A DNA stretch of 64,000 bases from a virus (Duplodnaviria; Caudoviricetes). The notes beneath the pieces were generated by a model that saw only the letters and a program-made list of their open reading frames with translations, made no database searches and had not been told where the DNA came from. How positions within the stretch are numbered: the first letter of the stretch is position 1; each line of letters starts with the position of its first letter. The stretch is from the IMG/VR virus record IMGVR_UViG_3300037420_002488, positions 997-64,996 of that record; one strand, given 5' to 3'. This document shows, in pieces, positions 18,509 through 21,028 of the stretch. The position numbers and the translations under genes were made by a program.

Positions 18509-19063
18509 ATGGTTTCAAAGAAGTGTAGCAGGCGCAAACCCTACAACCCCGACAAGTACGGCAAGGCGCGCACGCAGGCCGAGCGCGAGGCGCTGCTGGC
18601 GGATCGCCTGGCAGAGCGCTTCAGGATCATCGGCGACACGAACGCGCCCATCGACCCTGATGCGGTCAACACCATCGAGTTGCAGATGCGCAGTGCTGTC
18701 GATGCAATGACCTCTGGCGCCAGCAAGGTCGAGCACGCCGCCGTGCTGGCCGGCGAGATCAGCAAGGCCATGCTCATATGTCAGGCCGATTTCGCAGGTG
18801 CGAGGGAGTACCTTGCAATGGTGCTCAAGGCACGCGACGCACTCGAATCGGCCGGCAATCGCGCGATGGTCAAGCGCAAGTGGGGCCTGTCGGGGCCCGA
18901 GCTTTGCGCGCTGCGCGACTTCATAGATCTGCGCGCCGCGCTGCTGAGCCACGAGGACTACACCAAGGGTCTTGAGCGCTCAGTCGACAAAGCCGTGCGC
19001 GCTGAGATCGAAGCTGGCAATGTGCTGCGCTTCGCTGTTGACCCGGAAGGCGTAGCAGCATGA
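18509..19063 (+). CDS. Hypothetical phage protein
   Basis: 184 aa, helical, coupled to the downstream MTase. Confidence 0.75.
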   Translation: MVSKKCSRRKPYNPDKYGKARTQAEREALLADRLAERFRIIGDTNAPIDPDAVNTIELQMRSAVDAMTSGASKVEHAAVLAGEISKAMLICQADFAGAREYLAMVLKARDALESAGNRAMVKRKWGLSGPELCALRDFIDLRAALLSHEDYTKGLERSVDKAVRAEIEAGNVLRFAVDPEGVAA

Positions 19064-19563
19064 AACAACCCGTGGTACTTGATCCATGCTGCGGCAGCCG
19101 CATGATGTGGTTTGACAAGGCCGATCAGCGCGTGCTGTTCGGTGACCAGCGTAGCGAAGTTGTCGCGGTCACTGATCGTTCACATGGCAATCCGTCGGGG
19201 CAGCGCACTTTGCGCATTGAGCCCGACGCATTGATGGACTTTCGAGCCCTGCCGTTCAGTGACGCCTCCTTCAAGCTGGTGGCCTTCGACCCGCCGCACC
19301 TTGTGCGCGCTGGCCGGCGCAGTTGGCTGGCAGCCAAGTACGGGAAGCTGTCCGAGAACTGGCGCGATGACCTGCGCGCAGGCTTTTCCGAGTGCTTCAG
19401 GGTGTTGGAACCGCACGGTGTGCTCGTCTTTAAGTGGAATGAGACCCAGGTGAAGGTAGGCGAGGTGCTGGCCTTAGCGCCCATTGCGCCGCTGTTCGGG
19501 CACTTGAGCGGTCGTAAGGGCCTAACGCACTGGCTGGTGTTCATGAAGGTGGAGGCCGTATGA
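19060..19563 (+). CDS. Small SAM-dependent (probably amino-DNA) methyltransferase
   Basis: VLDPCCGS (motif I), FDPPH (DPPY-like motif IV), ECFRVLEPHG. Confidence 0.85.
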   Translation: MKQPVVLDPCCGSRMMWFDKADQRVLFGDQRSEVVAVTDRSHGNPSGQRTLRIEPDALMDFRALPFSDASFKLVAFDPPHLVRAGRRSWLAAKYGKLSENWRDDLRAGFSECFRVLEPHGVLVFKWNETQVKVGEVLALAPIAPLFGHLSGRKGLTHWLVFMKVEAV

Positions 19564-19889
19564 AGCGCGTCTACATCGCCGGTCCGATGACGGGCCATGC
19601 AAACCTGAACTTCCCCGCGTTCCATGCCGCCGCCTCGGCGCTGCGCGGTCAGGGCTTCGAGGTGATCAACCCAGCCGAGATCAACGGCGGGGAGGATGAA
19701 ATCGTGGCCTGCGCCTTGATGACGCCGCAGCAGCTCAAGGACCACTGGCGTGACTGCATGCGCAATGACATCACCATGCTCATGACATGCGACGGCGTGC
19801 ACATGCTGCCCGGCTGGGAGATGTCCAAGGGCGCCACCTTGGAGCATCACATCGCCTCTGCGCTTGGCTTGGAGGTCACTTTCGCGTGA
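19560..19889 (+). CDS. DUF4406-like (nucleoside deoxyribosyltransferase-like) protein
   Basis: VYIAGPMTG...NFPAF, VINPAE, LPGWEMSKGATLEH. Confidence 0.85.
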   Translation: MKRVYIAGPMTGHANLNFPAFHAAASALRGQGFEVINPAEINGGEDEIVACALMTPQQLKDHWRDCMRNDITMLMTCDGVHMLPGWEMSKGATLEHHIASALGLEVTFA

Positions 19890-21028
19890 CCGCCTATTAC
19901 AACGAGATCGACCCCTATGCAGCACAGTGGCTCCGCAATCTCATTGACGCCGGGCACATCGCCCCAGGCGTGGTCGATGAACGATCCATCGAGGACGTCT
20001 TGCCCTCGGACCTCAGAGGCTTCACACAGTGCCACTTCTTCGCTGGCATTGGCGTCTGGTCCCATGCCCTTCGCCGGGCCGGATGGCCAGACAACCGACC
20101 TGTTTGGACCGGTTCCTGTCCTTGCCAACCTTTCAGCACGGCAGGCGCGGGATCTGGATTTGCTGACGAGCGGCACCTGTGGCCAGCATTCCACCACCTC
20201 ATCCGCCACCGTCGCCCTCCAGCGGTCTTTGGAGAGCAAGTTGCGAGCAAGGACGCAGATCCTTGGATCGACCTTGTTCAAGCTGACATGGAAGGCATGG
20301 AATACGCCTTCGGGGCCGTTGCGTTTCCGTCTGCGGGCGTCGGTGCGCCGCACATCCGTGACCGCATTTTCTGGGTGGCCCACAGTGACGGCCGCGCTGG
20401 CGGACAAGGGCGTGCGCACGGTGGAAGGCGGCATAAGAGAGGCCATGCGCAGCCATGGGCCGGATCTGGCAGCAGTGGCGTGCATGACGCATTGGCCGAC
20501 CACGACAACATCGGACGCCTTGCGGTTCCCCGCCTTCGACAACGAAGCGGCGAACATGACGTTGAACCATGCGGCGGTGTTGGCATCGTGGGGAACGCCA
20601 ACAGCTCAGGAGGCGGGCGGGACGCCCGAGGCCTTTGTGGCTCGCAAGAGGAAGCATGCTTGCGGCAATGCGCTGACGGCGCTCAATCTGCAGGTGCAAC
20701 TTTCTTCCTGGGCAACGCCTGCGACAAGGAACTGGCACAGCGCCTCAGCGTCGCCGGAGTTCCTGGCGAGCCGCTTGGAGCAGTCGCGGGGCAAGCCCTT
20801 GAGCGAACAGGCCTTCACGATGCTGCCGGGTCCAGCCCGATTGGCGGTTTCTGGCGAGATGCTGACTGGCTCCTTTGCCGAGATGGGAAGTGGCGGCCAG
20901 TTGAACCCGGCACATTCCCGCTGGCTGATGGGGCTGCCGCCCGAGTGGGACGCCTGCGCGCCTACGGCAATGCGATCAACGCCGAAGCGGCGATCGCCTT
21001 CATTGAAGCATCCGGGCTGATCGCATGA
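19886..21028 (+). CDS. C5-cytosine DNA methyltransferase, alpha chain
   Basis: GGAGG plus GTG; HFFAGIG (I), SCPCQPFS (IV), GEQV (VI), APHIRDRIF (VIII), RLRAYGNAI (X); no motif IX seen. Confidence 0.88.
19917..21020 (+). CDS. Overlapping +1-frame MTase beta chain with motif IX-like end
   Basis: 367-codon open frame inside alpha; GC3 bias moves to this frame at ~20370-20950; [17 protein letters not shown]. True start unknown. Confidence 0.75.

Follow-up and report, generated by a model that had tools for sequence, protein, structure and literature searches.

Can a single stretch of phage DNA encode, in two reading frames of the same strand, both chains of one DNA cytosine methyltransferase? 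This question is raised by a gene in the 64,000 nucleotide stretch analysed here (referred to below as the window), which makes up almost the whole of a provirus record of 64,996 bases, as the +1 frame of this gene is open over nearly its entire length. A first-pass annotation of the window had proposed that the gene is a phage version of M.EcoHK31I, in which a catalytic chain (alpha) shares its DNA with a second chain (beta) carrying motif IX. Long overlaps on one strand with selection on both products are seldom met in bacteria and their viruses, where they are frequently contested. We examined homology, conservation, selection in each frame and structure models, and the two frames most likely specify, respectively, the catalytic and the DNA-recognition chains of a single enzyme, a C5 methyltransferase made of two chains as M.EcoHK31I is, and here with a beta chain that has four W-x-T-P modules and a motif-IX-like end (a reading to which we give a probability of about 0.8).

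The alpha chain

The following features, all on the plus strand, concern alpha and the gene before it.

19560..19889, +, upstream DUF4406 gene (nucleoside 2-deoxyribosyltransferase-like), translationally coupled to alpha
19886..21028, +, alpha coding sequence, C5 cytosine methyltransferase chain of 380 aa with a GTG start; PF00145, M.HhaI and fold matches
19886..20389, +, alpha N-terminal catalytic domain, codons 1-168 (FFAGIG, PCQPFS, GEQV, HIRDR), well folded with pLDDT 80-95
20390..20839, +, alpha tether, codons 169-318, disordered; its amino acids drift (dN/dS 0.79), and stop codons are absent from it in all relatives
20840..21025, +, alpha C-terminal module, codons 319-380, made up of one beta-hairpin and two helices and including YGNAI (motif X)

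The alpha frame is open from 19787 to 21028, and its homologs place the start at the GTG at 19886 (their consensus is M followed by 15 further letters). This GTG shares bases with the stop codon of the DUF4406 gene, as GTGA, and the start of the next gene in turn overlaps the alpha stop codon, as ATGA. Alpha is a C5 methyltransferase. The Pfam profile DNA_methylase (PF00145) matched residues 75-168 only (E 7.7e-12, profile positions 66-163 of 324), phrog_363, named ‘DNA methyltransferase’, spanned the protein end to end, and the sequence of M.HhaI matched residues 72-171 with an E value of 1.3e-14, a region that covers motifs IV-VIII; in addition, HMMER gave a weak match of residues 38-66 to M.HhaI 4-32, at motif I. 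Motifs IV (PCQ), VI (ENV-like) and VIII (R.R) thus lie in a Rossmann-type large domain, and the full set of motifs I-X is not present in the one chain. The first-pass annotation had listed motifs I, IV, VI, VIII and X in alpha and noted the lack of motif IX; its strings and coordinates proved correct. We located FFAGIG at 20036, PCQPFS at 20120, GEQV at 20231, HIRDR at 20351 and YGNAI at 20963, and could recognise no motif IX in alpha. Motif X (YGNAI) was assigned by eye and is invariant in the relatives.

When alpha was folded alone, residues 1-170 and 327-380 were modelled with confidence and residues 170-326 were disordered. The model aligned with M.HhaI (PDB 2i9k and others) with a Z score of 12.5 and an rmsd of 3.6 over 175 of 327 residues, which is about the extent of the large domain. 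The likeness lies in the folded parts of alpha, which superpose, and in motifs IV-VIII, which align; however, M.HhaI comprises 327 residues in a single chain and has a small domain of its own, whereas alpha corresponds to approximately half of it and lacks a folded small domain.

Two further observations were made in this part of the window. The order of motifs in alpha looks permuted, as a segment resembling motifs II-III (a 13-letter string leading on to SIEDV) precedes the motif I-like FFAGIG within 19886-20110; gp69 of mycobacteriophage Hades has the usual order, LFSGIGG and then VEINPYC. Directly upstream of alpha, two small genes occupy 19060-19889 in the same overlapping operon, the first encoding a protein of 167 aa and the second being the DUF4406 gene, whose pairing with a following methylase also occurs in phage N15 (genes 57/58). 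The 167-aa protein carries the strings DPCCGS and FDPPH, gave a sub-threshold match to Methyltransf_11 and, from its sequence, looks like an N6-adenine or N4-cytosine methyltransferase.

Conservation and selection in the two frames

The +1 frame inside alpha is open for 376 codons from 19890, and its longest ATG-initiated reading frame (19917-21020) has the 367 codons reported in the first-pass annotation. In the window alone, this openness is not beyond chance: a +1 frame of 376 codons was reached in 727 of 3000 synonymous shuffles of alpha (24%) and in 275 of 3000 shuffles of codon order. Both kinds of shuffle retain a codon set that has already been shaped by the overlap, and this is why equally long frames are so frequent among them. 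For no other real gene of the window is the +1 frame open over more than 234 codons. The shuffles nevertheless give some footing to the idea that beta is not translated and that the open frame is a by-product of the composition of alpha, or of a constraint at the level of DNA or RNA, since shuffled alpha codons often yield an equally long +1 frame in this GC-rich window.

We therefore turned to relatives, in two samples. The first was picked with alpha and comprised 80 IMG/VR loci and the window (81 in total; 50-61% identity, GC 0.53-0.67). A beta frame broken in homologs had been named in the first-pass annotation among the observations that would count against it; the +1 frame was open in all 81 loci, for 269-394 codons spanning nearly the whole gene, whereas the +2 frame had 6-26 stop codons (mean 16.8). 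As a sample picked in this way is biased towards intact alpha, the second was collected with beta as the query and consisted of 80 genomes, one per species and mostly from Proteobacteria. Here alpha was stop-free across beta in 79 of the 80 genomes, and the third frame in none (0/80). In shuffles that treated beta as the coding frame, the middle of alpha was expected to be open in 10.4 or 5.7 loci and was observed open in 79/79; likewise, beta was open over alpha codons 62-165 in 79/79 loci against 28 or 22 expected. The layout is also present in relatives of lower GC content (47-55%), among them phages of Paenibacillus, E. coli and Mycobacterium, and in these relatives shuffles reached the observed +1 length in 0-18 of 3000 trials. 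Both frames are thus stop-free across about 160 diverged loci, and alpha and beta co-occurred in every locus examined. A search with a beta profile retrieved 18,062 cluster representatives (50% identity, E <= 0.001) that had been called as genes, 7,765 of them at E <= 1e-30. As far as can be read from these sequences, the case for a conserved +1 frame is a comparative one and not one made by any single sequence.

Individual loci also showed departures from the common pattern. In three of the 80 beta-picked loci (L118, L122 and L137), alpha contains a stop codon or a frame break and beta is open; decay of the copy, faulty assembly or switching by slippage could each account for this. One viral contig has, immediately upstream of the full gene, a further match to alpha residues 1-209 (L006:1719-2336, 65% identity), which may be a partial copy in tandem or another methylase.

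Selection was then estimated separately for each frame, as the first-pass annotation had suggested, by sorting changes into those synonymous or not in each frame across 18 independent pairs with 73-97% DNA identity, with bootstrapping over pairs. The dN/dS values by alpha codon were as follows.

Codons 1-36: alpha 0.09, beta 1.02; selection on alpha only
Codons 37-74: alpha 0.08, beta 0.63; weak constraint on beta
Codons 75-168: alpha 0.26, beta 0.40; selection on both
Codons 169-318: alpha 0.79, beta 0.41; selection on beta only, alpha drifts
Codons 319-352: alpha 0.44, beta 0.33; selection on both
Codons 353-380: alpha 0.20, beta 0.83; selection on alpha only

These data show purifying selection on each frame in defined segments. 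Two of the segments are constrained in both frames.

20108..20389, +, alpha codons 75-168, motifs IV-VIII; in the other frame, the N-terminal helix and hairpin of beta (LSARQ, then a ten-letter string, then RASVRRTS)
20840..20941, +, alpha codons 319-352; holds a 14-letter string of beta at 20898-20939

In the first of these, changes that are synonymous in alpha but alter beta were depleted approximately threefold. The same switch of phase between the frames was seen in the variability of codon positions in codon alignments, with the beta phase prevailing in conserved W-x-T-P islands. The first-pass annotation had also described a GC3 bias that passes to the +1 frame in the variable region, and we recovered it: in alpha codons 169-318 the first codon position of alpha, equivalent to the third of beta, had a GC content of 0.78 and the third position of alpha one of 0.59, whereas at both ends of the gene alpha position 3 was the highest (0.71-0.74).

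The middle of alpha is not selected as a protein and yet is never interrupted; read-through, rather than protein sequence, is therefore what the substitution pattern indicates to be selected there. The earlier statement that alpha stays open across the variable region accordingly holds for every relative, although these middle 450 nt are merely kept open. The accompanying estimate of about 1.1 kb of dual coding needs refinement: the overlap itself measures 0.96-1.04 kb depending on the ATG used by beta, and only approximately 380 nt are constrained as protein in both frames. With respect to an untranslated by-product, beta has purifying selection of its own precisely where alpha drifts (0.41 against 0.79 in codons 169-318), the variability switches to the beta phase in the W-x-T-P islands, and the frame is open at a GC content at which shuffles scarcely reach its length; on this evidence we consider that explanation to be the least probable of those weighed here.

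The beta frame and a modelled complex

Three features define beta in the window.

19977..21020, +, beta reading frame in the +1 frame, 347 aa if the ATG at 19977 is the start; stop codon at 21018-21020
19995..19997, +, ACG at the site of the usual beta ATG of the relatives (alpha codon 37), the alpha codon being GAC and not GAT; the usual start is lost in the window
20376..20720, +, four modules of W-x-T-P type in beta (WPTV 20376, WPTT 20493, WGTP 20589, WATP 20709); the variable middle and putative target-recognition part

An ATG at alpha codon 37 serves the beta frame in 68 of 79 loci, mostly preceded by a 4-5 nt Shine-Dalgarno-like match, and most called beta proteins start there. In the window this codon is replaced by the ACG; the ATG at 19977 lies in frame six codons upstream of it and is also an ATG in 26 relatives. 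The other candidates are the ATG at 20064 (318 aa, the choice of the gene caller) and that at 19917. The beta of the window probably starts at 19977 or 20064, and this copy might be poorly expressed; both its start and its expression are uncertain because the ribosome-binding (Shine-Dalgarno) sites before all three ATGs are weak. A scan for sigma-70-like promoters inside and before the gene found none and hence gave no sign of a separate beta transcript.

These starts bear on the proposal that the gene yields a single chain by programmed frameshifting, with the alpha N-terminal domain followed by a shift to the +1 frame for recognition and motif IX and by a shift back for motif X. Such a path would rebuild the canonical order of motifs I-VIII, target-recognition domain (TRD), IX and X, and a 13-letter string of beta (20898-20957) does directly precede the YGNAI of alpha at 20963, as the canonical succession of IX and X would have it. 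A frameshifting gene would, however, have no need of an open alpha middle, which is stop-free in 79/79 and 79/80 loci against 6-10 expected; in addition, beta is under purifying selection over alpha codons 75-168, upstream of any useful point for a shift, and the relatives keep both the beta ATG and its Shine-Dalgarno-like site. We regard frameshifting as very unlikely.

Beta has four W-x-T-P modules here and 1-6 in its relatives, and its C-terminal element, QLNP....WLMG.P.EW, is nearly invariant among them. In the PHROG collection beta matched phrog_1008 and phrog_31772; Pfam gave no match with beta alone, PF00145 matched none of 71 members of the beta alignment even at E <= 10, and a beta profile found no match among PDB sequences. 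The first-pass annotation had called the end of beta motif-IX-like. The string is where it was said to be (14 letters at 20898-20939), although it has no Pfam or PDB support; because beta lacks such matches, motif IX is a label given by eye, from its appearance and from a modelled contact with motif X of alpha. Among longer proteins that hold beta (609-2000 aa), six were found and none of the six contained PF00145; this is weak evidence that there is no fused form, as a fusion in a single frame, at about 450 aa, belongs to the list of matches nearer in length, of which the best 120 were inspected.

Folded alone, beta was modelled poorly (pLDDT 57, pTM 0.27). Modelling of alpha together with beta, which the first-pass annotation had put forward as a check, gave a score of 0.92, with 0.00 for the best of three controls; the mark applied to this score is reached by 58/80 solved complexes and by 2/110 mismatched pairs. 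Agreement of contacts between runs was at least 54% and the pLDDT of the partner at least 58. In the model, beta 51-121 makes confident contacts with the motif VIII region of alpha (141-159), and beta 283-330 (QLNP..WLMG) contacts alpha 316-377, including YGNAI, as well as the N-terminal helix of alpha; the tether takes no part. The model thus supports binding of alpha and beta to each other. It may, however, reflect likeness to solved monomeric C5 methyltransferases and not binding of this particular pair, because the two chains would be the halves of a fold that has often been solved as a monomer.

The same results must be weighed against the view that beta is a translated protein of different function, such as a regulator or an anti-defence factor, that has been overprinted on alpha and is not a methyltransferase subunit. 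Its lack of Pfam and PDB sequence matches and its poor folding in isolation would suit such a protein, and the PHROG name ‘DNA methyltransferase’ for families of the beta type may merely echo the annotation of the overlapping gene. In contrast, the model places the conserved ends of beta on the motif VIII and motif X surfaces of alpha with a score that no control approached, alpha by itself is only about half of M.HhaI and without a folded small domain, the co-occurrence of the two chains is strict in every locus examined, and the sole tested enzyme with the same layout requires both chains (PMC2836561). A separate function for beta is consequently unlikely in our judgement, although we rate it above frameshifting, and all three explanations are weaker than that of a two-chain enzyme, for which the first-pass annotation now finds support in conservation, selection in two frames, the start codon with its Shine-Dalgarno-like site and the complex model.

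If the gene does encode a two-chain methyltransferase, one stretch of mRNA would give rise to two polypeptides. Frame 0 would yield alpha, in which a large domain that binds AdoMet and carries out catalysis (codons 1-168) is followed by a tether of approximately 150 residues and the C-terminal motif X module, and the +1 frame would yield beta from an internal start of its own. The N-terminal helix and hairpin of beta would dock on the motif VIII sheet of alpha, the W-x-T-P modules in the variable region would presumably read the DNA target, and the C-terminal QLNP....WLMG.P.EW element would pack on the motif X helices. Beta would in this way supply the small domain, comprising the variable W-x-T-P modules and the motif-IX-like element, and the two chains, both probably needed, would assemble into one C5 cytosine methyltransferase. 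The middle of alpha would then be the out-of-frame shadow of beta, existing because the ribosome must pass through it to join motif X to the catalytic domain.

Known systems and the wider family

The closest known system is M.EcoHK31I (E. coli HK31, YGGCCR; Lee, Kam and Shaw 1995), in which beta is described as contained entirely within alpha in a different frame, and in which the two chains are reported, from experiment, to associate and both to be needed (PMC2836561, PMC3404938). The present gene shares this layout: beta is encoded wholly inside alpha in the +1 frame, alpha carries motifs I-VIII as well as X, with a motif-IX-like element in beta, although association is modelled here and experimental there. 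Beta is larger in the present gene, at 318-347 aa; for M.EcoHK31I, the plasmid name pET3a-C23 points to approximately 23 kDa. The TRD of M.EcoHK31I is assigned to alpha, where it is called ‘predicted’, and motif IX alone to beta (PMC3404938). Here, in contrast, the variable region of alpha is a disordered, drifting tether and the conserved W-x-T-P modules are in beta, so that all of the variable, target-recognition part, and not motif IX alone, appears to reside there. As the systems are compared by description, the contrast may lie in how they have been interpreted and not in their biology. A second natural C5 methyltransferase of two polypeptides, M.AquI (CYCGRG), is split within the variable region (PMC3404938); it differs from the present gene, in which alpha retains motif X and encloses the whole of beta in a different frame.

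The inner reading frame has been annotated in a few phages. In Paenibacillus phage Sitara (47% GC), gp60 is recorded as ‘g59 internal gene’, gp59 being the methylase; it is the same embedded +1 reading frame and aligns with beta over its whole length (LANLS, LTWK, three W-TP-A units and GQLNP..LMGFP.GW). Escherichia phage K1ind1 has ORF28, ‘Mte8-like’, inside ORF29 in the same +1 layout, and gene 58 of phage N15 has the same two-frame layout. The internal genes of Sitara and K1ind1 are known as database annotations only: the genome papers examined for Paenibacillus phages are silent on the internal gene, the name ‘Mte8’ leads in the literature to a gene list alone, and a search on overlapping genes and cytosine methyltransferases found no description of a phage-methylase overlap family. 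The architecture is known from one enzyme, M.EcoHK31I, and a few GenBank records annotate the inner reading frame. We also noted that gp69 of Mycobacterium phage Hades, a 238-aa annotated methylase (L164:1591-2304), contains an unannotated +1 reading frame of approximately 190 codons with one W-x-T-P unit (W-R-T-P-V-A-R-D) and NP..WLMGFPVEW, a minimal layout that extends the dual-coding family to actinobacteriophages.

Judged by sequence comparison, the same layout is common to thousands of phage genes. The two frames here can be separated segment by segment through the selection acting on each, and there is an experimental precedent. If the two-chain reading is true, standard annotation, with its single gene for each stretch, overlooks half of an enzyme that is very common in phages, and predictions of specificity for these methylases would need to use the beta frame. 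What looks like a disordered ‘linker’ may, as this case shows, be another gene's shadow, and the gene offers a natural system for the co-evolution of two proteins on shared nucleotides. We would put at about even odds the broader proposal that the whole family consists of obligate two-chain enzymes, that is to say tens of thousands of C5 methyltransferase genes of phages and prophages with hosts in the Proteobacteria, Firmicutes and Actinobacteria (including N15, epsilon15 and BcepC6B), in which DNA recognition would lie entirely in the +1 frame as 1-6 W-x-T-P modules and the annotated ‘variable region’ of the methylase would be a meaningless read-through tether. Were this so, it would be, among gene overlaps on the same strand that are conserved in viruses of prokaryotes, the largest known and one of the longest, and most database entries would describe only half of the enzyme.
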